Both the position numbers and the translations under genes were made by a program. Shown piece after piece: positions 1-13,877 of a DNA stretch of 13,877 nucleotides. A model generated the notes under the pieces. That model ran no database searches, was not told the origin of the DNA, and was given only the letters and a program-made list of their open reading frames with translations. Source of the DNA: Sulfurihydrogenibium sp. (GTDB taxonomy: Bacteria > Aquificota > Aquificia > Aquificales > Hydrogenothermaceae); NCBI GenBank assembly GCA_037442825.1, contig JBBIPN010000035.1, positions 1 to 13,877 on the forward strand, given 5' to 3'. Positions within the stretch are counted from its first letter, which is position 1. Each line of letters opens with the position of its first letter.

Positions 1-2190
1 TTAGTTTATGATGCTTTCAACGATATTGTTGAGTTATCAAAAACCAATAATTATGCAAAGGAAGTTTTAGAATCTTGGGCAAATGCTGAATGGTTTTTAA
101 ATAAAGATCCAATTCCAGAAAAAATTGAAGTTATTGTATTTAAAGTACCGGGTGAGACAAACACAGATGATTTCTCTCCAGCTACAGAAGCATCTACAAG
201 AAGTGATATTCCACTTCATGCATTGAGTATGTTAAAAGCAAAAATGCCAAATGCTATAGAAAAAATAGCAGAGCTAAAAAAATCTGGTTATCAAGTTGCG
301 TTTGTTGGTGATGTTGTAGGTACTGGTTCAAGCAGAAAATCTGCAGCAAACTCTCTTATATGGCATATAGGTAGAGATATACCACATGTACCAAATAAAA
401 GAACAGGTGGTATAGTTATAGGTGGAATAATAGCTCCTATCTTTTTTAACACACTTGAAGACTCTGGAGCTTTACCAATAGAAGCTGATGTTACAAAACT
501 TGAAACTGGAGATGTTATTGAAATATATCCATATGAAGGAAAAATCGTTAAAAATGGGGAAGTTGTGTCTACATTTAGATTAAAACCAAATACACTTCCA
601 GATGAGGTTAAGGCTGGCGGAAGAATTCCATTAATTATAGGAAGAGGTTTAACAAGGAAAGCAAGAGAAGTTTTAGGTTTACCTGAAGAAAATATATTTA
701 TAAGACCAGAACAACCACCTGAAAAAGAAGGTATAGGTTATACTTTAGCTCAGAAGATGGTAGGAAAAGCTTGTGGAATGCCAGGTGTGAGACCAGGAAT
801 GTATGTAGAACCTCAAGTGTTAACAGTAGGTAGTCAAGATACAACGGGACCAATGACAAGAGATGAAATTATAGAACTTGCTGCTTTAGGATTTAGTTGT
901 GATTTTGTATTACAAAGCTTTTGTCATACAGCAGCATATCCAAAACCAGCTGATGTAAAATTACATCACACACTACCACCGTTTATAACTAGTAGAGGTG
1001 GTGTATCACTTAGGCCAGGAGATGGTATCATTCACTCTTGGTTAAATAGAATGGTATTACCAGATACTGTTGGAACTGGTGGAGATAGCCATACAAGATT
1101 CCCAATTGGTATATCATTCCCAGCAGGTTCAGGTTTGGTAGCATTTGCTGCAGTTACTGGAACAATGCCTCTTGTTATGCCTGAATCTGTATTAGTTAGA
1201 TTTAAAGGAGAATTGCAACCAGGAATAACAATAAGAGACCTTGTTAACGCAATTCCTTACTATGCTATTAAACAAGGTTTATTAACAGTTGAGAAGAAAG
1301 GAAAGAAAAACGTATTTGCAGGAAGAATATTAGAAATAGAAGGTCTTCCGTATCTAAAAGTAGAGCAAGCATTTGAATTTGCAGACGCTTCTGCTGAAAG
1401 AAGTGCTGCTGCATGTACAGTAAGATTAGCAAAAGAACCATTAATTGAATACATAGAATCTAATATAAAATTAATAGAAGCAATGATAGAAGCTGGTTAT
1501 CAAGATGCAAGAACTTTAAGAAGAAGAGCTGACAAAATGAAAGCATGGCTTGATAATCCAACGCTTTTAGAACCAGATGAAAACGCAGAGTATGCAGCAG
1601 TAATAGAGATAGATTTAAGTGAAATTAAAGAACCTATAGTTGCATGTCCAAATGACCCTGATGATGTTGCTACATTATCAGAAGTGTTAGCTGATGAAAG
1701 AAGACCTAAGAATATTGACGAAGTTTTTGTAGGAAGTTGTATGACAAATATTGGACATTACAGAGCTTTAGGTGAAGTATTAAGAGGAGAAGGTCAAGTT
1801 CCAGTAAGACTTTGGATAGTACCACCAACAAAGATGGATGAAAGACAACTTAGAGAAGAAGGATACTATGCAGTATACGGTCAAGCTGGAGCAAGAACAG
1901 AGGTTCCAGGATGTAGCTTATGTATGGGTAACCAAGCAAGAGTAAAAGATGGAGCTGTAGTTTTCTCTACAAGTACAAGAAACTTTGATAACAGAATGGG
2001 TAAAGATGCAAAAGTTTATCTTGGAAGTGCAGAGTTAGCTGCTGTATGTGGGATACTTGGAAGATTACCAACAGTTGAAGAGTATATGAATATAGTACCT
2101 AAAAAGTTAGCTGGTAAAGAAGATGAAATCTATAAATACTTAAACTTCCATCAAGTAGGTAAAGATGAATTGATATATCTAACAGTTTAA
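1..2190 (+). CDS. acnB: Aconitate hydratase B (bifunctional aconitase 2/2-methylisocitrate dehydratase family), 5' end outside window
   Basis: Frame is open from base 1 ([32 protein letters not shown]...[10 protein letters not shown]), so the TTG at 223 is internal. AcnB motifs: [35 protein letters not shown], and the Fe-S cysteines in CPNDPDD, GSCMTN and GCSLCMGNQ. Confidence 0.97.
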
Positions 2191-2197
2191 GTTTTTT

Positions 2198-2228
2198 AAG
2201 CTGGGTGCTTTATATACCCAGCTTTTTT
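2198..2228 (+). terminator. Rho-independent terminator of acnB
   Basis: Stem AAGCTGGGT (2198-2206) pairs with ACCCAGCTT (2216-2224) and runs into a T tract ending at 2228. It starts 7 nt after the acnB stop codon. Confidence 0.85.
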
Positions 2229-2322
2229 AATAATTTATTGAAATTAAGATTTTATTTTATAGAAAAACAAACGAAATCTTAGTTTTAGGTAATGTTATCA
2301 AATTATTATTAAATTATTAATA

Positions 2323-2856
2323 CTATAAATATCTTCCAATTTCTTCTAAAAGTTCTAGTAAAACATTTTTTACACTTTCTTTATTTAATGATACTAAAGG
2401 TAAAACCTTAATTTCATCTCCTAAGTCTAAAGCTGTCCTTATATCATCAGGACTCCATGCACCTTTTAGATCTTGTTTATTACATCCTACAACAAAAGGT
2501 GCTGGATATCTTGATTCAAAATAGTTTATTATTCTTCTTGCTTCATGAAATGTAGCTGGATCTGTACTATCTACTAAAACAACAAGTCCAACCATTCCTT
2601 TACCAAGAATATCCCACATAAAATCAAATCTTGACTGCCCTGGTGTACCAAACAGATACAACACATGTTCATCGTCGATTTTAATTCTTCCAAAATCCAT
2701 CGCTACTGTAGTATATTCTTTCTTTTCTTTCTCTCCGGCTTTTGTAGTTCTCGCTTCTGTTTTTACAGTCTCTATCTCACTTATAGTATTTATAAACTGA
2801 GTTTTACCTGCTGCATAAGGTCCTGAAATGACAATTTTAATCTTCTTTTCCGACAT
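2323..2856 (-). CDS. Small Ras-like GTPase, MglA group 2/CvnD-like (ATP/GTP-binding protein)
   Basis: G1 GPYAAGKT, G2 region TTVAMDFG, G3 LFGTPGQ, RFDFMW, G4 NKQD; 177 aa. Lies downstream of a roadblock gene. Confidence 0.9.
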   Translation of the reverse strand: MSEKKIKIVISGPYAAGKTQFINTISEIETVKTEARTTKAGEKEKKEYTTVAMDFGRIKIDDEHVLYLFGTPGQSRFDFMWDILGKGMVGLVVLVDSTDPATFHEARRIINYFESRYPAPFVVGCNKQDLKGAWSPDDIRTALDLGDEIKVLPLVSLNKESVKNVLLELLEEIGRYL

Positions 2857-2857
2857 T

Positions 2858-3553
2858 TTATAACCCTTTAATCTTAGATATTATTTTATTTAACAGAACT
2901 TTTGTTAACTCAAAGCCTATTTTCCTTTCTTTTTTCCTCTCCCTTTGTATTATCCCACAAGCCAAAAATCCATATAGAGATCTCTTTACTAATAAGTCAT
3001 TTATTTTAGATAAAATAATAATATCAACAACTTTATTCTTTCCATCAATTAGATGTAATATTTTCTTTTCATAGTCTGTTAAAAAAGCTTTTTTTGCTAT
3101 CTCTTCATAATTTGGAGATTTTTCAAATACTAAATTTAAATCAGATATCTTTCTCTCTACTTCTTCTTCTGTAAGTTGTCGAGAGAGATACATTATTAAC
3201 TTTTCAAGAGGAATTTGGGTTTTTAGTTCTTCTGGATATTTTATAAAGCCAGAAGTAAATGAAAATTTACCTTCTTTTATACTTAGTAATACAGGTAATT
3301 TTGCAACCAATATATTGTAAACTTCATCAAAGGAAATATTTTCTTTTTTTAAAACAACATCAAATAGTGTATCTAAATAAACATAGAAAACTTTTTTAAC
3401 TTCTCTTATATATACTATATTACCTTCTTTAAAATAAACTGCATAGTTAGTATCATCCTTTTCTATTACAAGAATACCATCTTTTTTATCTTTTAGTAAT
3501 ACTTGAAATATATCGACAAAATTAAATACTCTAAGATCACCAGCTATCGCCAT
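2858..3553 (-). CDS. DUF4388 (PATAN-like) domain protein with probable C-terminal winged helix
   Basis: The N-terminus MAIAGDLRVFNFVDIFQVL..KKDGILVIE...VYFKEGNIVY and the later EGKFSF fit the DUF4388 pattern. LTDYEKKILHLIDGKNKVVDII...LYGFLACGII looks like a wHTH. Stop codon is 1 nt from the GTPase start. Confidence 0.8.
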   Translation of the reverse strand: MAIAGDLRVFNFVDIFQVLLKDKKDGILVIEKDDTNYAVYFKEGNIVYIREVKKVFYVYLDTLFDVVLKKENISFDEVYNILVAKLPVLLSIKEGKFSFTSGFIKYPEELKTQIPLEKLIMYLSRQLTEEEVERKISDLNLVFEKSPNYEEIAKKAFLTDYEKKILHLIDGKNKVVDIIILSKINDLLVKRSLYGFLACGIIQRERKKERKIGFELTKVLLNKIISKIKGL

Positions 3554-3560
3554 TTTTTTA

Positions 3561-3920
3561 TCATCCTAATTCTTGTTCAAGTTTTTTCACTGTTCTTTGA
3601 ATTTCCATTAAAAGTAATCCTAATTTAGCATTTACAGGTGCCAACACACCTAAAACTGCTATATCTTTTACACCAGTAAAAATTACATAACCTGAAGAAC
3701 CTTTAATATAAAGTTGCTCTAAATTTCCTTTTTGTAATTCAGACGTTACTCTCTCTCCAAGAGATAGTATAGTAGCTCCCATAGCAGCAACTCTGTCTTC
3801 ATCCGCTGAAGACGGTAAAACGGAAGCTATAGCAAGACCGTCAACACTTACTAAAACAGCACCTTCTGCACCTGAATCTCTCAGAAAATTTTCTAAAATT
3901 TCATTATACTTAACAGCCAT
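3561..3920 (-). CDS. Roadblock/LC7 domain protein (MglB-like GAP candidate)
   Basis: GAVLVSVDGLAIAS, DRVAAMGATILSLGER and LGLLLMEI are typical roadblock motifs. Start placed at the ATG at 3920 because GGAGG (3927-3931) abuts the 3926 ATG but is 6 nt from the 3920 ATG. Confidence 0.9.
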   Translation of the reverse strand: MAVKYNEILENFLRDSGAEGAVLVSVDGLAIASVLPSSADEDRVAAMGATILSLGERVTSELQKGNLEQLYIKGSSGYVIFTGVKDIAVLGVLAPVNAKLGLLLMEIQRTVKKLEQELG

Positions 3921-3933
3921 AACCATCCTCCAA

Positions 3934-4902
3934 TTACAAATTCAATAATATAACTTTCGTATTCTCTATAAAAGTTTCTCTTTTTTTTGCTTCTGGGATA
4001 TCTTCAGCTAAACTATGAATAAATTTTAACACAGAATATTTTGTAACATTGTATGTTTTAAAGAAATCTTCTTTTTTTCTTTTCATTATAAACTTACCAA
4101 ATGGCCCTATGACTTTTATAAATTCTTTTTCGATATTGTCTAATATTTCATTGATATTATCTACAGATTCTTGATGAGTAATTTCTTCTAAAGCTTCTTT
4201 TGTTTCTTTTAATTCCTCTTGGATATCTTGATTTTGAAGTAAAATCTCTTCTAAAGAAGGTATATCATTGAGGGATGTATTATCTTTACCAATCTCTTCT
4301 TTTACATTTAATATATCTTCTAAATTTGGTATTTCATTATCTACTTCTTTTGTTTCTTCTTTTAAAATTATTTCTTGATTTGATGATAAAACTTTTTCTA
4401 ACTCTGTTATCTCTTCACTATATGTTATCTCTTCTTTTTGCTTGCTTTTTTCTTTTAAATTTTCCTTAGATTTTACTATAAGCTTTTCTTCAGATTGTTT
4501 TTCTTCTTTTTCTTTTGGCTTTAAGTATATTTCATAGTGATCTAAGAAATCTTTTTCATACTTTTTTAAATCTTTAGCTAAATCTTGAGCACCTACTTTA
4601 AGGAGTGAAAAGTTAGGTTTACCTAATTTGATAATTCCAATGGCAATATCTGGAGATAAATAATAAACCATAATAGCGTAATCTTTACCTTCTGACAGTA
4701 AAAATTCTGCATTAAAATTTTTTATAGCTTCATTGATCTCTAAAGACTTTTCAACTAATCTTGAAAAATAATCTTCTAATCTTTCTGATTTATGTATATG
4801 TCTAGATGTTAAAATTTTCCCTTTTATAAAAATACCTATAAACTCCAAATTTAGATCAGTAAAAGTCTTATTTAAAAGATTATTTATTGTTGTTAAATCC
4901 AT
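3934..4902 (-). CDS. Hypothetical protein: divergent roadblock-like N-domain, acidic linker and helical C-domain
   Basis: 322-aa ORF tightly packed in the operon. Residues ~1-114 align by eye with the neighbouring roadblock protein, ~125-250 are E/K-rich low complexity, and the C-domain carries FIKVIGPFGKFI...SLAEDIP..KKRETF. Confidence 0.75.
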   Translation of the reverse strand: MDLTTINNLLNKTFTDLNLEFIGIFIKGKILTSRHIHKSERLEDYFSRLVEKSLEINEAIKNFNAEFLLSEGKDYAIMVYYLSPDIAIGIIKLGKPNFSLLKVGAQDLAKDLKKYEKDFLDHYEIYLKPKEKEEKQSEEKLIVKSKENLKEKSKQKEEITYSEEITELEKVLSSNQEIILKEETKEVDNEIPNLEDILNVKEEIGKDNTSLNDIPSLEEILLQNQDIQEELKETKEALEEITHQESVDNINEILDNIEKEFIKVIGPFGKFIMKRKKEDFFKTYNVTKYSVLKFIHSLAEDIPEAKKRETFIENTKVILLNL

Positions 4903-4908
4903 AATAAA

Positions 4909-5277
4909 TTAAAGTTCACCTTTTTCTAACTTTTCCATTATTGTTTTCATACTTAATCTCATTCTTTCAAAAGAGTCAGCTAACTCTTCTAATTCATCTC
5001 CAGTTTTTTCTACTTTTATCTCATAATCTAAATTTCCCATGCTTACTTCTTTCATAGCATGAGATATAGATCTTAATTTTTTTATTATATTTTCTTCAAT
5101 TATCTTCCTTATTAAAAATACTGGTATTAAAAATAGTATTTGGGAGCCTATAATAGATATTAGAGCATTTATGGGATTTGAAGTTAAAAAGAAAACTAAA
5201 ACACCAACAAGTAATGCGCCAATAAAAGATCCTCCAAGAACTAAAAAAAAGATTCCATCAAGAACTGATTTCTTCAT
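4909..5277 (-). CDS. Two-TM HAMP-domain protein with no output domain
   Basis: Two hydrophobic helices (res ~8-31 and ~36-57) are followed by the HAMP pattern IIKKLRSISHAMKEVSMGNLDYEIKVEKTGDELEELADSFERM. RBS GGAGG at 5287-5291. Confidence 0.85.
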   Translation of the reverse strand: MKKSVLDGIFFLVLGGSFIGALLVGVLVFFLTSNPINALISIIGSQILFLIPVFLIRKIIEENIIKKLRSISHAMKEVSMGNLDYEIKVEKTGDELEELADSFERMRLSMKTIMEKLEKGEL

Positions 5278-5279
5278 TT

Positions 5280-5807
5280 TTATTTACCTCCGTATCCCTT
5301 ATATTTATTATCGTAAAATTTATTTTTAAACTTTAATAAAGTATACAATAAAATTGATCCAATTGCTATAGAAATTAAATTTAATATGCTGGAAATAGAA
5401 TGCAATGTTTTAAATTTATTTTTTAATAAATTAGCATTTGTAAAATCTTTTTCATCTAAATAAGAAAAATATTGTTGATTTATGGATTGTGCTAATGGAA
5501 GAATTGTCCTATCTTGTGCCATATTTATAATTACAAGTACAAATAAAAGGATTAAAAACCATTTAAAATCTTTTATAATTTCTTTATTTTTAAAAGATAT
5601 TATACCAGTTAAAGTGTAAATAGTTATTCCAGAAATCCACCAAATTTTAAAGTAGTATATAAAGTAATCATTAACTATTTCGCTTGCTGTTTTAACATCA
5701 TGAGAATGAAATATAGAAGGAGTGAAAATAAAAGTAAAGTAAAGGCTTCCCAAAATTAGAGAAGCCAGCAGTACAAAAATGCTTACAAATATATATTTAT
5801 ACCACAA
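5280..5807 (-). CDS. DUF4149/TMEM205-like 4-TM membrane protein
   Basis: Four hydrophobic segments, with FTPSIF, ILPLA and FKTLHSISSILNLI matching the family's F..LH..S..LN motif. TTG start overlaps the ndk 3' end by 11 nt. Confidence 0.65.
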   Translation of the reverse strand: MWYKYIFVSIFVLLASLILGSLYFTFIFTPSIFHSHDVKTASEIVNDYFIYYFKIWWISGITIYTLTGIISFKNKEIIKDFKWFLILLFVLVIINMAQDRTILPLAQSINQQYFSYLDEKDFTNANLLKNKFKTLHSISSILNLISIAIGSILLYTLLKFKNKFYDNKYKGYGGK

Positions 5808-6213
5808 TTTCTAATCCACTAAAGAAGAAAGGTATTTCATAAATTGCAGATTCTGGAGAATCTGAACCATGAACAGCATTCTCTCCAACATTTGTACCAT
5901 AAAGTTTTCTTAAAGTTCCCTCTTCTGCTTTAGATGGATCTGTAGCTCCCATTATCTCTCTTACTCTTGAAATAATATTTTTACCTTCCCATACCATAGC
6001 AACTATTGGTCCAGATGACATAAATTCACATAACTCATTATAAAATGGTCTTTCTTTGTGAACAATATAAAACTGTCCAGCCTGTTCTTTTGTTAATTTA
6101 AGCTTTTTTAAAGCTACTAACTTAAAACCTTCATCTTCAAATCTTGAAATGATTTTTCCTACTACATTTTTTCTTACTGCATCAGGTTTTGCTAATACAA
6201 GAGTTCTTTCCAT
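5797..6213 (-). CDS. ndk: Nucleoside diphosphate kinase
   Basis: MERTLVLAKPDAV, FYIVHKERPFY, GATDP, GTLR and the catalytic NAVHGSDS. True start is the ATG at 6213 with RBS GGAGG at 6220-6224; the ORF-track extension to 6279 runs through the promoter region. Confidence 0.97.
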   Translation of the reverse strand: MERTLVLAKPDAVRKNVVGKIISRFEDEGFKLVALKKLKLTKEQAGQFYIVHKERPFYNELCEFMSSGPIVAMVWEGKNIISRVREIMGATDPSKAEEGTLRKLYGTNVGENAVHGSDSPESAIYEIPFFFSGLEIVV

Positions 6214-6244
6214 TAGAAACCTCCAAATTATAGTTTTTAAGATT

Positions 6245-6253
6245 ATTATAACA
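6245..6253 (-). promoter_or_regulatory. Candidate extended -10 promoter for the ndk-GTPase operon
   Basis: Minus strand reads TGTTATAAT (TGn-TATAAT consensus), about 30 nt upstream of the ndk ATG. No good -35 box. AT-rich context raises the chance of a coincidental match. Confidence 0.5.
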
Positions 6254-6259
6254 TAAACA

Positions 6260-6289
6260 TTGTAAATATTGATTTTCAAATGTTAAAAT
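6260..6289 (+). promoter_or_regulatory. Candidate sigma70 promoter for the aldolase-fbp operon
   Basis: TTGTAA (6260-6265), an 18-nt spacer, then TAAAAT (6284-6289) preceded by TG at 6281-6282. An alternative TATAAT lies at 6297-6302. Confidence 0.4.
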
Positions 6290-6325
6290 ATTTTTATATA
6301 ATTTTTTATTAAAAAGGAGGGCAAT

Positions 6326-7744
6326 ATGGCTAACGTCTTATCTTCTTTAGAAGAAGTAAATAATAGACTGAAAGATGTAATAGAAATCTATGATGGAAGA
6401 GTTAGAATCTTAGACGAAGTTAAATTAAGAAATGAAGTGATTGATGATTTAATCTACACAGCTGTATTTTCAAAGGATTGCAATTTAAAGGAAGAAGTTA
6501 AGTATCTAATAAGAGAGATTGCTAATGAGTATGGTGCTATAGCTTCTTCAATACATGATTTATACATGGCGATGGGAAGAGGAGAAACAAGAGATTTTAC
6601 AACGCCAGCTGTAAATATTAGAGGTATGACTTATGATGTAGCAAGGAGAATGTTTAAAGTAGCTATAAAAAATGATATAGGTGCTATGATTTTTGAAATT
6701 GCAAAATCTGAGATAGAATACACATTCCAAAGACCTTCTGAGTATGCTTCTTGTGTATTAGCGGCAGCTATCAAAGAAGGTTATAAAGGACCTGTTTTTA
6801 TACAAGGTGATCATTTTCAGTTTAGTTCTAAAAAATATTTTGAATATCAAGAAAAAGAATTAAACGCAATAAAAGAACTTACAAAGGAAGCAGTAGATGC
6901 TGGATTTTACAACATAGATATAGATCCTTCTACACTTGTAGATTACTCGAGAGAAACACTAAAAGAACAACAGTACCATAACTATTTAAACACAGCAAAA
7001 ATGACAGACTACATAAGAGAAATACAACCAGAAGGTATTGATGTCTCAATAGGAGCTGAAATAGGGCATATCGGTGGTAAAAACTCAACTGTAGAAGAAT
7101 TTGAAGCATTTATGGAAGGATATTTAGAAACTATTAATAGAAAGCCAACAATATCTAAAATTTCTGTTCAGACAGGTACTGAGCATGGAGGTATACCTCT
7201 TCCAGATGGTACAGTAGCTAAAGTTAAGTTAGATTTTAATGTTCTTAAAGATATTGGTGAAGTCGCAAGGAAAAAATACGGTTTATCCGGAACAGTTCAA
7301 CATGGAGCTTCAACATTACCAGAGGAGTTATTTGATAAGTTTCCAGAAAATAGCTGTTCAGAAATACATTTAGCAACAGGATTTCAAAATATTATGTTTG
7401 ATTTAGCACCGCAATCTTTTAAAGAAGAGGTTTATAAATTTATAGAAGAAAACTTCAGAGATGAATGGAAAGATGGAATGACAAGAGAGCAATTTTTGTA
7501 CAAATCAAGAAAAAGAGGATTAGGACCATTTAAATATCAATGGTGGACTCTTGAAAACAAAAAAGAGATACTTGATGCTCTTGAGAGAAAATTTGAGTTT
7601 TTATTTGAAAAATTAAAAGTTTTTGGAACAAAAGAGTATACTGATAAGTATATTAAACTTATTAAAACTTCTTATGTAAAAGGTTCAACAAAAGAAGTTA
7701 AACAAAAAGCAGCAGACATAAAGCTTGAAGCAGGAGCTGATTAA
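6326..7744 (+). CDS. Class II (metal-dependent) fructose-bisphosphate aldolase-family protein, long form
   Basis: Class II motifs PAVNIR, FIQGDHFQ, IDIDPS, GAEIGHIGG, GTEHGG and VQHGAS. Strong RBS AAGGAGG. Upstream of fbp. Confidence 0.85.
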   Translation: MANVLSSLEEVNNRLKDVIEIYDGRVRILDEVKLRNEVIDDLIYTAVFSKDCNLKEEVKYLIREIANEYGAIASSIHDLYMAMGRGETRDFTTPAVNIRGMTYDVARRMFKVAIKNDIGAMIFEIAKSEIEYTFQRPSEYASCVLAAAIKEGYKGPVFIQGDHFQFSSKKYFEYQEKELNAIKELTKEAVDAGFYNIDIDPSTLVDYSRETLKEQQYHNYLNTAKMTDYIREIQPEGIDVSIGAEIGHIGGKNSTVEEFEAFMEGYLETINRKPTISKISVQTGTEHGGIPLPDGTVAKVKLDFNVLKDIGEVARKKYGLSGTVQHGASTLPEELFDKFPENSCSEIHLATGFQNIMFDLAPQSFKEEVYKFIEENFRDEWKDGMTREQFLYKSRKRGLGPFKYQWWTLENKKEILDALERKFEFLFEKLKVFGTKEYTDKYIKLIKTSYVKGSTKEVKQKAADIKLEAGAD

Positions 7745-8260
7745 TTGAGTTTAGATAAACAGATAAATGCTATAAAAGAGGTATACAGAGAGTATGAAAA
7801 GGCTGGGGAAAAAACCCGCCCTGTAATTGTTGGAAAATTTGCTTTAACTGTTTATACGCAAGGGATGTATCCAGCTAATATAATATCTCTTTTACATCCA
7901 GATATAGTCTTTTTAGAAAAGGTGTTATCTAATTTAGGCTATAAAAAGTTTGGAGATTTATGGTTGAGGGATGATATAAACATTGAAGTTAGTAAAGACT
8001 TTAAGCTAATTACAGGAATTTTAAATCAGATAGAAGTAGATAAAGAAGAAGTTTTTAATGTTTTATCATTAGAAGATTTAATATTGGATATGATGGTTTA
8101 CTGTGTTGAAGGTGATGATTTTGTTTGTGATTTAATAAAGTTGGTTGTTAAATCTTACTATAAAGTTTTAGATTTTCATTATATATATCAAAAGATAAAC
8201 GATAGAAGATTTATACCTAAACTTAAAGCATTTAAGAAGGAAGCGGAGGAAATACAATGA
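7745..8260 (+). CDS. Hypothetical protein, probable degenerate nucleotidyltransferase fold
   Basis: TTG start immediately after the aldolase stop, with AGGAG at 7732-7736, and an ATGA overlap with fbp. Carries PVIVGK.A..VYT.G.Y, LGYKK.G..W and SLEDLILD. Confidence 0.7.
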   Translation: MSLDKQINAIKEVYREYEKAGEKTRPVIVGKFALTVYTQGMYPANIISLLHPDIVFLEKVLSNLGYKKFGDLWLRDDINIEVSKDFKLITGILNQIEVDKEEVFNVLSLEDLILDMMVYCVEGDDFVCDLIKLVVKSYYKVLDFHYIYQKINDRRFIPKLKAFKKEAEEIQ

Positions 8261-9222
8261 TTGGTATGGATTTAAATAGTTTTATACTTCAACAGGAAAG
8301 GTTGTATCCACAGGCTACAGGCTCACTTTCAAGGGCTTTGGTTGCTATTGAATCTGCTACAAAAGTTATAGCTTCCCATGTAAGGATGGCTGGTTTAGCT
8401 GATGTTTTAGGATTAGCCGGGAAAACAAACATTCAAGGGGAAGAAGTTCAAAAACTTGACGAACTATCTAATAATATATTGATAAATTATTTATCTAAAT
8501 CTGGAGAGTTTTATGCACTTGCTTCTGAAGAGTTAGATGAATCTATCTTCCCAGAAGAAGGAAAAGATGGAAAATACATAATTGCATTTGATCCACTTGA
8601 TGGTTCTTCTAATATAGATGTTAATATAAGTATTGGAACTATATTTTCTATCCATAGGAAAATAAATGGAGATGTTTCTGACTTTTTACAAGAAGGTTAT
8701 AAACAAGTAGCAGCTGGATATGTTATATATGGTTCATCTACTATGTTAGTTTTATCAACAGGTAATGGTGTAAATGGATTTACATTAGATCCATCTGTTG
8801 GAATGTTTTTACTGTCTCATCCCAATATTAAAATACCTGAAAAAGGAAAGATTTATTCGATTAATGAATCAAATGATAGAAAATGGACTGATAGAGGCTT
8901 AAAAGAGTATATAGAAACATTAAAGGATGAAGGTTATACATCAAGGTATATAGGTTCTATGGTTGCTGATGTCCATAGAACATTATTAAAAGGTGGTCTT
9001 TTTGCTTATCCTGCTGATGTTAAAAGTAAAAATGGAAAATTGAGATTGCTTTATGAAGCTTCTCCAATGGCATTTTTAACTGTGCAAGCAGGTGGTCTTG
9101 CAACAACCGGAAAAGAAGATATTTTAAACATAAAACCTACAGATATACATCAAAGAGTTCCTGTTTTCTTAGGTAGTAAAGTAGAGATAGAAAACTTACT
9201 TAAAGTAATACAAAATGGATAA
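8257..9222 (+). CDS. fbp: Fructose-1,6-bisphosphatase class I
   Basis: GEEVQKLD, ASEE, FDPLDGSSNIDVNISIGTIFSI, RYIGSMVADVHRTLLKGG and GKLRLLYEA. RBS GGAGG at 8245-8249. Confidence 0.97.
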   Translation: MIGMDLNSFILQQERLYPQATGSLSRALVAIESATKVIASHVRMAGLADVLGLAGKTNIQGEEVQKLDELSNNILINYLSKSGEFYALASEELDESIFPEEGKDGKYIIAFDPLDGSSNIDVNISIGTIFSIHRKINGDVSDFLQEGYKQVAAGYVIYGSSTMLVLSTGNGVNGFTLDPSVGMFLLSHPNIKIPEKGKIYSINESNDRKWTDRGLKEYIETLKDEGYTSRYIGSMVADVHRTLLKGGLFAYPADVKSKNGKLRLLYEASPMAFLTVQAGGLATTGKEDILNIKPTDIHQRVPVFLGSKVEIENLLKVIQNG

Positions 9223-9592
9223 ATATCTAGTTCTTGCAATAGGTGGAGGTATAGGCACTATTTTAAGATATCTTACTGGTGTATTTTCTGCCAGATTTTT
9301 TGGAACAGATTTCCCATATGGGACACTAATTGTAAACGTTATAAGTTCATTTATTCTTTCTTTTTTTATGATTATCTTTTTAGAAAAACTGTCTTTAAAT
9401 CCACTTTGGCGTTTATTTATTGCTGTAGGTTTCTGTGGTAGTTTTTCGACATTGTCATCTTTAACATATGAAACCTTTGCTTTGATTATGGATGGAGAAT
9501 ATATAAAAGCTGGATTAAATGTGTTTTTAAACTTCAGTTTATCTTTTATAGCTGCTTTTATTGGTATTGTTATTGGTAGAGCTATTTTATAG
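9215..9592 (+). CDS. crcB: Fluoride channel Fluc/CrcB (atypical Phe-box)
   Basis: GGGIGTILRY, FPYGTLIVNV and GFCGSFSTLSSLTYE; 125 aa with 4 TM segments; followed by DUF190. Confidence 0.92.
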   Translation: MDKYLVLAIGGGIGTILRYLTGVFSARFFGTDFPYGTLIVNVISSFILSFFMIIFLEKLSLNPLWRLFIAVGFCGSFSTLSSLTYETFALIMDGEYIKAGLNVFLNFSLSFIAAFIGIVIGRAIL

Positions 9593-9602
9593 AGGTGTTG
9601 AA

Positions 9603-9941
9603 ATGAAATTAGAGGGAGAAGCTATTTTACTTAGGATACATATAGGAGAAACTGATAAATATGGAAAAAAACCACTTTACAAAAAGATTGTTGAAGTTTT
9701 GAGGGAAAATCATATAGCAGGTGCGACAGTTTTAAGAGGAATATTAGGATTTGGAAAGTCAACAGTTATACATTCTGCATCTATCTTAGATTTATCTGAA
9801 GACTTACCTATAATTATTGAAGTTATAGATACAGAAGATAAGATTAAAAATGTTCTTCCAAAAATAGAAGACTTTATAAAAAATGGACTTATAACTATGG
9901 AAAAAGTTAGAATAATAAAGTATGTTGCTGAAGGGGAATAA
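9603..9941 (+). CDS. DUF190 family PII-like protein
   Basis: LLRIHIGETD, AGATVLRGILGFG and LSEDLPIIIEVID. Start is the ATG at 9603 with GAGGTG at 9592-9597. DUF190 is a usual neighbour of crcB. Confidence 0.9.
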   Translation: MKLEGEAILLRIHIGETDKYGKKPLYKKIVEVLRENHIAGATVLRGILGFGKSTVIHSASILDLSEDLPIIIEVIDTEDKIKNVLPKIEDFIKNGLITMEKVRIIKYVAEGE

Positions 9942-9943
9942 TT

Positions 9944-10531
9944 TTGTTTTTAGGAATAGATATTTTAGATAATATTTTTATTGTTAGTTTAATGGATGAA
10001 AATAAAAATGTAAAAGGTCTATTTAAATTTTACAAAGAAGGTTTATTGTGGTTTATAGACCATACTAATCCTAACGTTATGGCTGTTAACTATGACTTTT
10101 GTGTTAAATCTAAAATATCTGATACAAATAAATCATTATCTAATCTTTATAAAGTAATAAAAAATGATTTTGGGTATTCAGAAATCAATAAAAAGACCTT
10201 TAGAGAAAAAGAAAAGAAAATTTTAAAATCTGATATTGAAGAGTTTTGGAAAAAAGTTATCAGGAAAGATATACTACCTTCAGATACAGTAGAAGGTTTA
10301 GAACAAAGGTTGTACAATTTACCAAAAACAGGTATAAGATTAAATAAAAAACTGTTATCTATAAATAAAAAATACATAGCAAAAGAAATCGATTCTGTTG
10401 TACTATCTTTTGCTGCTTTTAGCTATTACAACAACAGATTTGAACATATAGAAACAGAAAATGGTGTTATTATAACACCTAAATATATTTATGTAATGAA
10501 AAAAGATAGAGAAGAAAAAGAAGAAGGTTAA
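9944..10531 (+). CDS. DUF429-like RNase H-fold protein (predicted nuclease, divergent)
   Basis: N-terminal FLGID strand, GLEQRL..L, EIDSVVLSFAA and terminal E.GVIITP resemble DUF429/COG2410 by eye. TTG start 2 nt after the DUF190 stop, with AAGGGGA upstream. Confidence 0.55.
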   Translation: MFLGIDILDNIFIVSLMDENKNVKGLFKFYKEGLLWFIDHTNPNVMAVNYDFCVKSKISDTNKSLSNLYKVIKNDFGYSEINKKTFREKEKKILKSDIEEFWKKVIRKDILPSDTVEGLEQRLYNLPKTGIRLNKKLLSINKKYIAKEIDSVVLSFAAFSYYNNRFEHIETENGVIITPKYIYVMKKDREEKEEG

Positions 10532-11250
10532 TTTAGTTTGATATGGTAAAAAATTAATCCTATATATTCTCTTATAGCTTTTGTAGAGTCTTGAAGAACA
10601 TTCATCTTAGGAAAATAACTGTATAAAGTATATTTTTTATCCATTTTAAAATCTGTAGGGTAAGGTATAACATCTAATCCAGCTTTTTTAAAGGTATAAA
10701 CAGCCCTTGGCATATGGTAAGCAGATGTTATAAGAATCACTTTTTTAAAGTTATACTTTTCACAAAACTTTCTAGTAAAAACAGCATTACCAAACGTATC
10801 TCTACTATTTACATCTGTAAAAATATACTTTCTATCTATCCCTAACTCTGTTAAAATCTGTTTCATTGATTCTGATTCAGGCAAATTAGTAATTGCAGAG
10901 CCGCCTGAAAGGATTATTGGAACATTTAATCTTTTATGTAAAACAAAACCTGCCAAAACCCTTTTAAAAGAATCCTCTGTTAAAATACCTGTATTGTAAC
11001 TTCCACCACCTAATACAACAATAACATCTCCATTTGTATCTGAAGGTATTAAATATTTAGTTTCTAAAGGTTTTAATAAAAAATCTTTTACTGGCTCTAT
11101 TGATAAAATGTATACTGTTAAACCAGATATTAATGATATTATAAAAACTTTTCTATTTTTTCTTCCTAAAAAAGCTAATAGGAAAAATAAAACTAAAAAT
11201 ATTCCTGGTGGGATTATAAAAAATGTAATTAGTTTTTTTATAAAAAACAT
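10528..11250 (-). CDS. YdcF/ElyC/SanA (DUF218) family membrane protein
   Basis: Two N-terminal TM segments, VIVVLGGG, IILSGGS, SRDTFGNA, LITSAYHMPRA, PYPTDF and REYIG. Confidence 0.9.
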   Translation of the reverse strand: MFFIKKLITFFIIPPGIFLVLFFLLAFLGRKNRKVFIISLISGLTVYILSIEPVKDFLLKPLETKYLIPSDTNGDVIVVLGGGSYNTGILTEDSFKRVLAGFVLHKRLNVPIILSGGSAITNLPESESMKQILTELGIDRKYIFTDVNSRDTFGNAVFTRKFCEKYNFKKVILITSAYHMPRAVYTFKKAGLDVIPYPTDFKMDKKYTLYSYFPKMNVLQDSTKAIREYIGLIFYHIKLN

Positions 11251-11325
11251 CTTCCCTCTATCTTTATCATAAATTTTGTAGAAAACTATTATATAATGTT
11301 TAAAAAATTGTAAGAGGTGATTCTA

Positions 11326-12714
11326 ATGGAAGCACTTTCTCAAAATGTTAAGTTTGATGTAGATATGATAAAAAAGTACGATAAACCAGCACCAAGATAT
11401 ACAAGTTATCCTCCTGCTACTGAGTTTACAGATGAGATAGATAAAAGTGAGTATGTTAAAAAAATTATTAAATCTAATGAAAGAAAGACACCTTTATCTT
11501 TATACTTTCATATACCATTTTGTGAAAATGCTTGTTATTTTTGTGCTTGTAATGTAATAATAACAAGAAGAAAAGATGTTGTTAAACCATACTTAGATTA
11601 CCTTTATAAAGAGATGGATCTATATAAAAATCTCATTGATGTAAACAATAGAAAAGTTGTTCAACTCCATTGGGGTGGAGGGACACCTAATTACCTATCA
11701 GATGAAGAAACAGTAGAACTATTTCAAGAGATAAAAAAACGTTTTAGCTTTGATGAAAATTCAGAAATTTCTATTGAGATAGACCCAAGGCATGTTGATA
11801 GAGATAGGATTTTTCTATTAAAAGAGATAGGTTTTAATAGAGCAAGTTTTGGTATTCAAGATTTCAATCCAAAAGTTCAAGAGGCAGTAAACAGAATACA
11901 ACCAGAAGAGATGATTTTTAATGTTATGAAATGGTTTAGAGAATCTGGTTTTGAAAGTGTAAATATAGATTTAATATATGGATTACCTTATCAAACCCTT
12001 GAAACATTCTCTGAGACAGTTGATAAAACTATAGAACTTAATCCAGATAGGATAGCTGTATTTAACTTTGCATATGTACCATGGCTTAAGAGACTACAAA
12101 GGAATATTAATGAAAAAACATTACCACCACCAGAAGAAAAATTAAAAATACTTCAAATGACAATAGATAAACTAACGAAAGCTGGATATATATTTATTGG
12201 AATGGACCATTTTGCAAAACCAAACGATGAACTTACAGTAGCACAAAGAGAAAGAACATTACATAGAAACTTCCAAGGTTATACAACAAAAGCAAATGCA
12301 GAACTTTTTGGTTTTGGAGCTACATCAATAAGTATGCTCTATGATGGCTATGTTCAAAACTACAAAGTTTTAAGAGATTACTATGAAACTATAGAAAAAA
12401 AACAACTTCCAATAGAAAGAGGTGTATATCTAACACAGGATGACATTATAAGAAGAGATGTTATCATGAAACTCATGTGTCATTTTAGATTAGTAAAATC
12501 AGAAGTAGAAGAAAAGTTTAAGATAGTGTTTGATGAATACTTTAAAGAAGAAATGAACATCTTAAAAGATATGGAAAAAGATGGTTTACTTGATTTATAC
12601 AAAGACAGAATAGATATAACACCCATAGGAAGACTTTTAATTAGAAATATTGCATCATCTTTTGATATATACCTTAGAAATAAAAAAGAAAGGAGATTTT
12701 CAAAAGCTATTTAA
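11326..12714 (+). CDS. hemN: Oxygen-independent coproporphyrinogen III oxidase (radical SAM)
   Basis: PRYTSYPPA, SLYFHIPFCENACYFCAC (CxxxCxxC), HWGGGTP, IGMDHFA and LHRNFQGY. ATG 11326 preferred because GAGGTG at 11314-11319 works as its RBS. Confidence 0.96.
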   Translation: MEALSQNVKFDVDMIKKYDKPAPRYTSYPPATEFTDEIDKSEYVKKIIKSNERKTPLSLYFHIPFCENACYFCACNVIITRRKDVVKPYLDYLYKEMDLYKNLIDVNNRKVVQLHWGGGTPNYLSDEETVELFQEIKKRFSFDENSEISIEIDPRHVDRDRIFLLKEIGFNRASFGIQDFNPKVQEAVNRIQPEEMIFNVMKWFRESGFESVNIDLIYGLPYQTLETFSETVDKTIELNPDRIAVFNFAYVPWLKRLQRNINEKTLPPPEEKLKILQMTIDKLTKAGYIFIGMDHFAKPNDELTVAQRERTLHRNFQGYTTKANAELFGFGATSISMLYDGYVQNYKVLRDYYETIEKKQLPIERGVYLTQDDIIRRDVIMKLMCHFRLVKSEVEEKFKIVFDEYFKEEMNILKDMEKDGLLDLYKDRIDITPIGRLLIRNIASSFDIYLRNKKERRFSKAI

Positions 12715-13436
12715 TGGGATTTAAATTTATTTTTTCTTTTATACTTATTTTAGTTGCAATTTTTGTTTCTTATAAAGAAAAGATAGGATTAGAAAAAGAT
12801 ATACTTTATAGTAGTATAAGAGCTTTTATCCAGCTTATCTTACTTGGTTATGCATTAATTTATATCTTAAAATTAAAAAATCCTTTTGGATTTATTCTTA
12901 TACTATTTTTTATGGTTTTAGTAGCTACATATACAGCTCAAAGAAGAGTAAACATCTATAAAGGGTATAAAGTAGCTTTTATATCTATATTTTTGTCTTC
13001 ATCAATAATAATTTTTTTACTAATTATTTTTAATATTCTCTCTTTAATAGCAAATGAGATTGTACCTATTGGAGGTATGATTATAGGAAACGCTTTAAAT
13101 GCATATACACAAACAATAGAAAGGTTTAGAAGTGATGTAAAAAATAATTTAGATATAATTGAAGGATTTGTGGCTTTAGGTGTTCCAATAAAGGAAGCTT
13201 TTAGAATACAGATAACTAAGTCTATAAAAGCTGCAATGATTCCAATTTTAAATAATTTACAAACATTAGGTATTATATGGATTCCTGGTATTACAGCTGG
13301 AATGATATTAGCTGGAGCATCTCCAATTAGTGCAGTATTTTTTCAACTTGTAATTATGTTTAGTATGGTTGCTGTTGCTACACTTACTTCTTACTTTGCA
13401 ACAAATTTTAGCTATAAAATAATATTAACTTCTTAA
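12714..13436 (+). CDS. UPF0014 family ABC permease (FetB/YbbM-like iron export)
   Basis: RAFIQLILLGYAL, VPIGGMIIGNA, IKAAMIP, LGIIWIPGITAGMILAGASP and FQLVIMF. TAATG overlap with hemN. Confidence 0.88.
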   Translation: MGFKFIFSFILILVAIFVSYKEKIGLEKDILYSSIRAFIQLILLGYALIYILKLKNPFGFILILFFMVLVATYTAQRRVNIYKGYKVAFISIFLSSSIIIFLLIIFNILSLIANEIVPIGGMIIGNALNAYTQTIERFRSDVKNNLDIIEGFVALGVPIKEAFRIQITKSIKAAMIPILNNLQTLGIIWIPGITAGMILAGASPISAVFFQLVIMFSMVAVATLTSYFATNFSYKIILTS

Positions 13437-13877
13437 CATCTCCTTAACTTTTTGAAAAATTTCCTCTGGTGTTATTGATGTTAAACATTCAAAAGTATTA
13501 TATTTACAGCTATTTTTACCATGTAAACTGCAAGGTTGACAAGGTAAATTTTTAAATATATAACTTCCCTCATCTTCTAAAGGTGCAAAACCAAAATAAG
13601 GATGTGTAGAACCATATACCATTAAAACCTTTACTCCTACGGCTCTTGACATGTGGGCAACTGATGAATCATTACTAATTGTTAACTTTCCTAAAGATAT
13701 CACTGATAAACTCTCTCTCAATGTTAATTTTCCTCTTAAATCTATAATCTTACTATCGTACACATTTTTATCTAAATCTTTATCTTCTTTAGAACCAACT
13801 AAAATGACGTTATAACCATAATCTAATATTAACTTTGCAACTTTATCATAGTATGGATATATCTTGCTAATATACCT
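13425..13877 (-). CDS. Glycosyltransferase family 9 (LPS heptosyltransferase-like), 5' end outside window
   Basis: Frame is open to the window end (RYISKIYPYYDKVAKLILDYGYNVILVGSKED...). Contains DLRGKLTLRE, SNDSSVAHMSRAVG, YGST and LPCQPCS...C...CL. Confidence 0.9.
   Translation of the reverse strand, partial: RYISKIYPYYDKVAKLILDYGYNVILVGSKEDKDLDKNVYDSKIIDLRGKLTLRESLSVISLGKLTISNDSSVAHMSRAVGVKVLMVYGSTHPYFGFAPLEDEGSYIFKNLPCQPCSLHGKNSCKYNTFECLTSITPEEIFQKVKEMLRS

Follow-up and report, generated by a model that had tools for sequence, protein, structure and literature searches.

We describe a five-gene cluster at positions 2323-5277 of a 13,877-nucleotide stretch of DNA from Sulfurihydrogenibium sp. 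(contig JBBIPN010000035.1 of assembly GCA_037442825.1, positions 1 to 13,877; the window hereafter). The cluster is real and is conserved in one family of hot-spring bacteria, the Hydrogenothermaceae. Three of its genes correspond to a small-GTPase switch that has been catalogued before. Added to this switch are a membrane protein without sensor and an adaptor, which likely dock together and would tether a regulator of the switch to the membrane without a kinase. In the specific form that we favour, at slightly better than even odds (about 0.55), the cluster encodes a kinase-free Group 5 MglA module. In it, MglB would be the GTPase-activating protein (GAP) and a CvnC-like half protein the guanine nucleotide exchange factor (GEF), and a HAMP dimer would hold two adaptors whose degenerate roadblock domains place or tune MglB at the membrane. 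The five genes are, from the membrane protein to the GTPase:

4909-5277, minus strand: membrane protein with two transmembrane helices and a HAMP domain (2TM-HAMP), 122 amino acids (aa); Pfam HAMP, hydrophobic segments, relatives
3934-4902, minus strand: predicted roadblock-DUF8082 adaptor, 322 aa; AlphaFold2 model, Foldseek, VIA, PF26309 call
3561-3926, minus strand: MglB/roadblock protein, 121 aa, probably 119 aa from 3920; Pfam Robl_LC7, PDB matches
2858-3553, minus strand: DUF4388/PATAN and winged helix protein, 231 aa; Pfam, structure model, fold search, hhalign
2323-2856, minus strand: MglA-family small GTPase, 177 aa; Pfam ATP_bind_1/Arf, alignment, motif counts, tree

The genes are separated, in this order, by 6, 7, 7 and 1 nt. 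The gap between adaptor and roadblock becomes 13 nt if the roadblock begins at its second Met (3920), a start that the spacing of GGAGG fits better. An earlier sequence-only reading of this DNA, which had reported five same-strand genes with gaps of 1-13 nt, was thus right about the open reading frames. Its domain calls (HAMP, roadblock, DUF4388, GTPase) were reproduced with Pfam, two hydrophobic segments were found in the HAMP protein, and the unit holds no kinase gene, as it had said. It overlooked the DUF8082 domain (PF26309) at the adaptor C-terminus and two genes, ndk and a DUF4149 gene, that lead into the unit.

The distribution of the cluster was surveyed in 118 Aquificota genomes at least 90 % complete. 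The GTPase was found at E 1e-50 or better in 84 of them, including 29 of the 34 other genomes of the own family. HAMP, DUF8082 and GTPase stand in this order within 4.5 kb in 23 of the 30 own-family genomes with the GTPase (own genome included), and the cluster is therefore not due to chance; synteny in relatives had been set beforehand as a test of the sequence-only reading. Three of the other seven genomes (G003, G122, G124) are cut by contig ends, two (G117, G129) were left out of inspection and two (G011, G125) lack the HAMP gene at the locus. Gene-by-gene annotation of 23 own-family loci found all five genes in 18, with three loci cut by contig ends and two without HAMP. In the five of the 34 family genomes that lack the GTPase, neither a DUF8082 match nor a strong 2TM-HAMP match turned up. 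No locus examined outside the own family had the five-gene form. In a partial scan of prokaryote genomes (2 of 64 parts), the flanks of GTPase relatives at 80 loci gave no 2TM-HAMP or DUF8082 match, and the Chloroflexota loci were mostly PATAN-GTPase.

By the motif definitions of PMC4316618 (section 15), the GTPase is a Group 5 MglA, because it has Thr in place of the Arg finger, GTPGQ and a canonical G4 [NT]KxD. Its motifs are G1 GPYAAGKT, Lys46, a G2 Thr-Thr without Arg finger, G3 GTPGQ and G4 NKQD at residues 126-129, and it is coupled to an MglB with the Asp-Gly pair and to a PATAN neighbour, as listed for the Aquificae. Group 1 MglA requires an Arg finger and TVPGQ (PMC4316618), and this GTPase has neither the intrinsic finger nor TVPGQ. 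Group 2 (conservon) GTPases carry NxFD in G4 and DAR in G5 (PMC4316618). In an alignment of 127 GTPases (five Group 1 rows aligned poorly near G2 and their counts there were not used), 30 of the 31 conservon rows had the Phe of NxFD and all 31 had the Asp and Arg of DAR, and none of these residues occurs in this GTPase. Of 91 Group 5-like rows 90 have Lys46, as do 31/31 conservon rows. This is consistent with its being equivalent to the switch I lysine of MfpB in the Asp-Lys GAP mechanism modelled for the roadblock MfpD (PMC13015309, in part; here and below 'in part' marks a source that was available to us in part).

In a quick tree of 67 rows picked from the 127, with four Group 1 rows as outgroup and the reference sequences of PMC4316618 not included, the GTPase fell into an Aquificota clade of 13 (SH-aLRT 98), apart from 19 conservon rows (100). 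The Group 5-like rows were not one clade in this tree. An approximately unbiased (AU) test did not reject the joining of Aquificota and conservon GTPases (p 0.249), and a sister relation of the two is therefore possible. Several f1 and f3 genomes contain further, more divergent Group 5-like GTPases (L056-L067; 35-47 % identity), which mostly have no roadblock or PATAN neighbours; three of them are near fliS. At several cyanobacterial Group 5 loci a protoglobin gene lies beside the roadblock, GTPase and DUF4388 genes (L147:4666-5223; L129, L132, L133, L134, L140).

The roadblock protein has a Pfam Robl_LC7 match (E 3e-20) and holds an Asp29-Gly30 pair, typical of Group 2-5 MglB (PMC4316618, section 15). 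To judge from its sequence it likely acts as the GAP, and the roadblock MfpD has been reported as a GAP (PMC13015309, in part). In the 231-aa protein Pfam finds DUF4388 at 4-130 (E 4e-20). The structure model of this protein (predicted local distance difference test, pLDDT, 89.9) has a winged helix at about 155-207, as foreseen in the sequence-only reading, followed by a terminal helix. In the VIA fold search the winged helix matched many winged helix-turn-helix (wHTH) chains at Z 5-6, the best of which mix peptide-binding and scaffold wHTHs with DNA binders; Foldseek gave no match at E 0.001 for this protein. The sequence-only reading had merely placed the protein in the CvnC position. The relation now appears closer, as hhalign aligned 57 C-halves with 21 conservon CvnC proteins at 94.7 % (E 5.7e-8, 76 columns, through the terminal helix), with 0.2 % in a reversed control. 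Single-direction HMM searches were weaker (CvnC HMM to a relative, best E 1.7e-4), and no Pfam DUF742 match was found in the protein. On this profile comparison, the C-half appears homologous to CvnC/DUF742. The DUF742 protein MfpC has been reported as a GEF (PMC11343762, in part), and the DUF4388 protein is a candidate GEF and/or output.

In VIA, the winged-helix half matched best to 8fw5_C, a chain of a GATOR1-Rag-Ragulator entry (Z 8.7, root-mean-square deviation (rmsd) 2.5, 74 aligned, 5 % identity). This is suggestive of a GTPase regulator but lies near the level of common folds. Each of the five module genes has one copy in the own genome, but contig C25 carries an additional, orphan DUF4388 gene. 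This DUF4388-wHTH paralogue (L068:5089-5865, G000:C25:8088-8864) is 258 aa long and 44 % identical, has an insertion in the winged helix and lies directly upstream of a long proA-like ORF. In genome G001 (L006:1685-2149) an in-frame fusion of 154 aa joins the N-half of the roadblock with the DUF4388 protein's C-half; this is either a deletion or an assembly artefact.

The relation to conservons has to be weighed at this point, as the sequence-only reading had called the unit conservon/Mgl-like, with a reduced sensor. Like conservons/AGPS (CvnA-D, MfpE-B), the module has a membrane HAMP protein first, then a roadblock, a wHTH protein that appears CvnC-homologous in its C-half and a GTPase without Arg finger. 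A true conservon whose CvnA kinase shrank to the membrane-HAMP part would explain this shared gene order, the apparent CvnC homology and the common TT/GTPGQ motifs, and it would agree with the AU test. It is nevertheless improbable. The module has Group 5 instead of Group 2 motifs, with NxFD and DAR absent, the conservon clade is separate from the Aquificota clade, the CvnC-like part is fused to PATAN, and there is an extra adaptor. The phylogeny against CvnD proposed in the sequence-only reading thus gave separate clades, although it left room for a sister relation. Conservons are moreover defined with a kinase and in Actinomycetota (PMC12236503, in part), whereas the CvnA sensor with HATPase/kinase expected of them is here a 122-aa protein that ends 13 residues past HAMP. 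The claim that this protein is a cut-down CvnA was not supported: it more probably belongs with output-less HAMP proteins that partner DUF8082/STAC in many settings, and its tail resembles theirs.

The adaptor was modelled with AlphaFold2 from 14 sequences. The pLDDT is about 85 at both ends and below 50 through much of the middle. Residues 1-121 match MglB in Foldseek (E 1e-6) and roadblocks in VIA (Z 14-15.5, rmsd 2.2-2.5, 113-121 aligned), and the N-terminus is accordingly predicted from the model to have a roadblock fold, the cryptic roadblock suspected in the sequence-only reading. The Asp-Gly pair is absent from 20/20 aligned adaptor N-termini and kept in the MglB gene. The linker, which is 25 % Glu and modelled with low confidence, contains three short (I/P)xxLExIL-like repeats and is variable in length; whole adaptors range from 283 to 605 aa. 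The C-terminal 75 residues (248-322) are PF26309/DUF8082 by a precomputed domain call, with an invariant Gly266-Pro267, and the 322-aa protein had no match in the Pfam family scan of the window proteins. The bundle profile matches Af1502 (PDB 5a1q; E 1.4e-4 over 30 positions), and a DUF8082/STAC four-helix bundle is predicted for this end.

In the HAMP protein Pfam places the HAMP domain at 63-109 (E 2e-11), and the hydrophobic segments begin near residues 9 and 38. It consists of two transmembrane helices with a very short loop, the HAMP as the sole cytosolic domain and a conserved 13-residue tail. Relatives (57 aligned; those named are from Sulfurihydrogenibium, Persephonella and Venenivibrio) are 122-144 aa long, and this constant length rules out a pseudogene or broken gene. 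Phosphorylation of the invariant Ser79, considered by analogy to the HAMP threonine of 10.64898/2026.05.25.727664 (in part), was rejected: only the position speaks for it, the unit has no kinase, and one weak Pkinase match was found elsewhere in the genome. A second stand-alone HAMP membrane protein of 144-152 aa occurs in some family genomes (L072:5605-6042, L073:5920-6378, L075:5712-6146), with no DUF8082 match adjoining the gene at these three loci.

HAMP and DUF8082 are repeatedly encoded together. The DUF8082 bundle profile (26 rows) found 89 places in 75 of the 118 Aquificota genomes, and at least 75 of the 89 have a same-strand HAMP match within 2.5 kb, in a count that used 150 of 185 HAMP places and 5 from fetched loci. 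The paired HAMPs that were inspected are C-terminal in membrane proteins without output domain, and they occur in at least four gene settings. The first is the present five-gene locus. In the second, tandem 2TM-HAMP genes are followed by a DUF8082 protein of 220-230 aa, far from the GTPase (L070:4611-6054, L071:4718-6201, L074:5735-7166); a non-circular profile comparison gave 38.7 % probability (E 3e-4) for the N-terminus of these proteins as the same domain. In the third, a Group 1 MglB-MglA locus of family f2 is joined by a 355-395 aa protein, without Pfam match and ending in DUF8082, and by a Tll0287- or dCache-HAMP protein (L078:5773-8830; also L079, L081, L088, L089, L176, L177, L184, L185); some genomes add a second pair with dCache-HAMP. 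From its sequence, the Tll0287 heme-sensor-HAMP protein at this locus is a candidate gas or redox input to MglA. The fourth consists of PATAN-DUF8082 and Tll0287 heme-sensor-HAMP pairs in family f5, with no GTPase within the fetched flanks. Outside Aquificota, DUF8082 matches were found in 8 of 30 genomes, and 5 of the 12 short loci showed a HAMP-terminal gene. One of these genes adjoins that of a cyanobacterial Ser/Thr kinase in which the bundle occurs twice. The L070 tandem HAMP/DUF8082 genes are convergent with a PilB/GspE-type ATPase gene.

The present pair has the features of an output-less HAMP/STAC pair, i.e. HAMP as the only cytosolic part and an adjacent gene for a four-helix bundle with the GP motif. 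In Pseudomonas azotoformans, a Cache_heme-HAMP receptor that ends in HAMP is bound by two IGP-motif bundles of a Ser/Thr kinase with a Kd of about 90 nM, and a 3.47 A cryo-EM map has the IGP(L/I)AR helices on the output-less HAMP (10.64898/2026.05.25.727664, in part). The STAC protein Af1502 is encoded beside the HAMP-only receptor Af1503 (PMC4834066, in part). Because the Pseudomonas bundles bind an output-less HAMP, we consider that the HAMP protein here probably serves to dock the roadblock adaptor and so tether it to the membrane.

In the mechanism we propose, the 2TM-HAMP protein would dimerise and the DUF8082/STAC bundle of the adaptor would bind its HAMP, as in the Pseudomonas receptor-kinase pair. 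The kinase has its two bundles in a single chain; here they would come from two adaptors joined via the roadblock domains. The degenerate adaptor roadblock, without Asp-Gly, would then bind the MglB roadblock in an MglC-like manner and place or tune its GAP activity at the membrane, and the CvnC-like C-half of the DUF4388 protein would promote nucleotide exchange. Since the HAMP protein has almost no periplasmic loop, a role as ligand sensor is less likely than one as anchor or as relay for a membrane partner. A membrane-anchored switch is plausible, and the Pseudomonas pair gives a precedent for the docking.

Several observations weigh against this reading. The sequence likeness between adaptor and MglB is weak (3.5 % in hhalign), and the HMM search in reverse (PATAN C-half against CvnC) reached no better than E 0.14. 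No HAMP was nearby at 14 of the 89 DUF8082 places among the matches listed, several of these being at contig ends or beside unlisted matches. The pairing count is raw, with no null for HAMP density; HAMP is common, and kin genomes, which are not independent, inflate the number. Af1502 alone is a monomer, and STAC has been proposed to act in transport (PMC4834066, in part). The near-complete genomes G011 and G125, of one genus, keep the adaptor with its DUF8082 while the HAMP gene is missing at the locus, and no stand-alone 2TM-HAMP match was found genome-wide in either. Related families have the GTPase core without HAMP or adaptor beside it: all six annotated loci of family f2 (L043-L048) are roadblock-DUF4388-GTPase only, and those of f3 are DUF4388-GTPase only. 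One genus has the 2TM-HAMP pair and DUF8082 protein far from the GTPase, and pilT occurs in 117 of 118 Aquificota genomes irrespective of the module.

The HAMP and adaptor genes could instead form a signalling cassette of their own, which shares the operon but does not act on the GTPase, the working module being only MglB-PATAN-MglA. The core loci of f2 and f3, the pairs away from the GTPase (L070, L071, L074), the f5 pairs and the loss of the HAMP gene in two genomes would all be explained in this way. We regard it as unlikely, however, as the roadblock fold of the adaptor belongs to a GTPase-regulator family and the gaps are only 6-13 nt. In addition, the Group 1 MglA-MglB locus of f2 has HAMP/DUF8082 pairs beside it as well, a second association with an Mgl GTPase, and all parts are jointly missing in five family genomes.

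The output is the least certain part of the tethered Group 5 module. The PATAN half would transmit it, with the type IV pilus motor as the likeliest target, given that in Synechocystis the PATAN domains bind both PilB1 and PilC (10.1101/2021.06.11.447907, in part). The own genome has PilB/PilT-type ATPases, and mats of Sulfurihydrogenibium express pili (PMC6918859, in part); what PMC12393216 (in part) adds is precedent from Thermus alone. Such an output is doubtful rather than likely. Alternatively, the module may be membrane-tethered and control gene expression or solute transport, with the winged helix binding nucleic acid or HAMP-STAC regulating a membrane protein such as DUF4149. The wHTH fold is real, conservon outputs are transcriptional or translational (PMC11343762, PMC12236503, both in part), STAC domains have been linked to transport (PMC4834066, in part), and DUF4149 is adjacent in 20 of 21 own-family loci and near the core in four of six f3 loci. 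This alternative seems rather unlikely, given that DUF742, the apparent homologue of this wHTH, has been reported as a GEF (PMC11343762, in part), that the fold matches include peptide-binding and scaffold types besides DNA binders, and that the tested role of PATAN is pilus motor binding (10.1101/2021.06.11.447907, in part).

As the sequence-only reading had suspected, related clusters have been noted before. Table S2 of PMC4316618 (2015; Wuichet and Sogaard-Andersen) lists MglB>PATAN>MglA as Group 5 in Aquifex, Hydrogenobacter, Persephonella, two Sulfurihydrogenibium (177 aa) and Thermocrinis, and the paper calls Group 5 neighbourhoods variable. Our locus agrees with this entry in the three core genes and their order, the 177-aa GTPase for Sulfurihydrogenibium, the G2-G4 motifs and the Asp-Gly of MglB; it differs in that the table has neither a HAMP nor a roadblock-DUF8082 gene. 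The three-gene core is thus known as a catalogue entry and the two extra genes are the new part. Myxococcus/Thermus MglA-MglB-MglC (Group 1) likewise comprises a small GTPase, a roadblock GAP and a second, divergent roadblock, but here the intrinsic Arg finger and TVPGQ are lacking, the second roadblock is fused to a putative membrane-docking bundle and there is no RomR in the unit.

The P. azotoformans pair resembles ours in that an output-less HAMP membrane protein adjoins a protein with IGP-motif bundles, the binding being shown in Pseudomonas (10.64898/2026.05.25.727664, in part). Here, in contrast, there is no periplasmic sensor and one bundle per chain, fused to a roadblock and not to a kinase, beside a GTPase module. 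Af1503/Af1502 (PDB 5A1Q) similarly couples a HAMP-only receptor genomically to a four-helix LGPx(x)A protein, but Af1502 is stand-alone, archaeal and linked to transport genes, and the available part of PMC4834066 mentions neither roadblock nor GTPase. Full-text literature searches found no paper with DUF8082, none joining four of STAC, HAMP, roadblock, GTPase and Af1503, and, since 2015, none joining four of MglA, group 5, Aquificae, small GTPase, roadblock and Aquifex. Literature searches also found no experimental study of any Group 5 system. The combination of a sensor-less HAMP protein, a roadblock-STAC adaptor and a Group 5 GTPase was not found in the literature searched, which was mostly non-subscription and included 10.64898/2026.02.01.703092 (in part). 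Each part has a precedent and what is new is their combination.

Several deep-branching phyla have Group 5 MglA GTPases. The locus supplies small thermostable proteins and leads to three predictions: that HAMP binds STAC, that the adaptor binds MglB and that the C-half of the DUF4388 protein has GEF activity. If these hold, they would reveal what output-less HAMP proteins can signal to other than a kinase, assign a role to DUF8082 and PATAN-wHTH proteins and link conservons with Group 5 systems. A more far-reaching and tentative version, which we think possible rather than probable, is a kinase-free relay from receptor to G-protein. In this relay a HAMP-only membrane protein would act via STAC directly on a roadblock scaffold, which controls the state of a Ras-like GTPase, and one protein would combine the CvnC-like GEF with the PATAN output. 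On this view a single ancient GAP-GEF-GTPase core, fitted with exchangeable membrane inputs, would underlie both conservons and Group 5 systems, and the present module would be a bacterial counterpart of scaffolds like Ragulator, in which roadblock proteins are anchored to a membrane.

Two further genes on the same strand lead into the five-gene unit, with gaps of -11 and 2 nt:

5797-6279, minus strand: nucleoside diphosphate kinase (ndk), start probably about 22 codons further in; Pfam
5280-5807, minus strand: DUF4149 membrane protein, 2 nt upstream of the HAMP gene; Pfam

Both are upstream in 19 of the 21 own-family loci that reach that far. From this arrangement, the DUF4149 gene is probably co-transcribed with the module, and ndk is probably the first gene of the transcription unit. 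A promoter scan was uninformative (32 sites compared with 24.9 +/- 4.2 in shuffles), Rfam gave no match, and NCBIfam gave none above the cut-off among the eight proteins scanned. ESM Atlas matches of 0.82-0.87 are leads only. The only clear hairpin, at 2198-2224 on the plus strand, fits the convergent aconitase gene. A 195-aa protein at 9944-10531 (plus strand) has a weak, below-cut-off Pfam match to Evf (E 4e-5), which is probably spurious. Divergent from the unit, at 6326-9222 on the plus strand, a class II aldolase-like gene, a 171-aa gene without Pfam match (7745-8260) and an FBPase-like gene follow one another.

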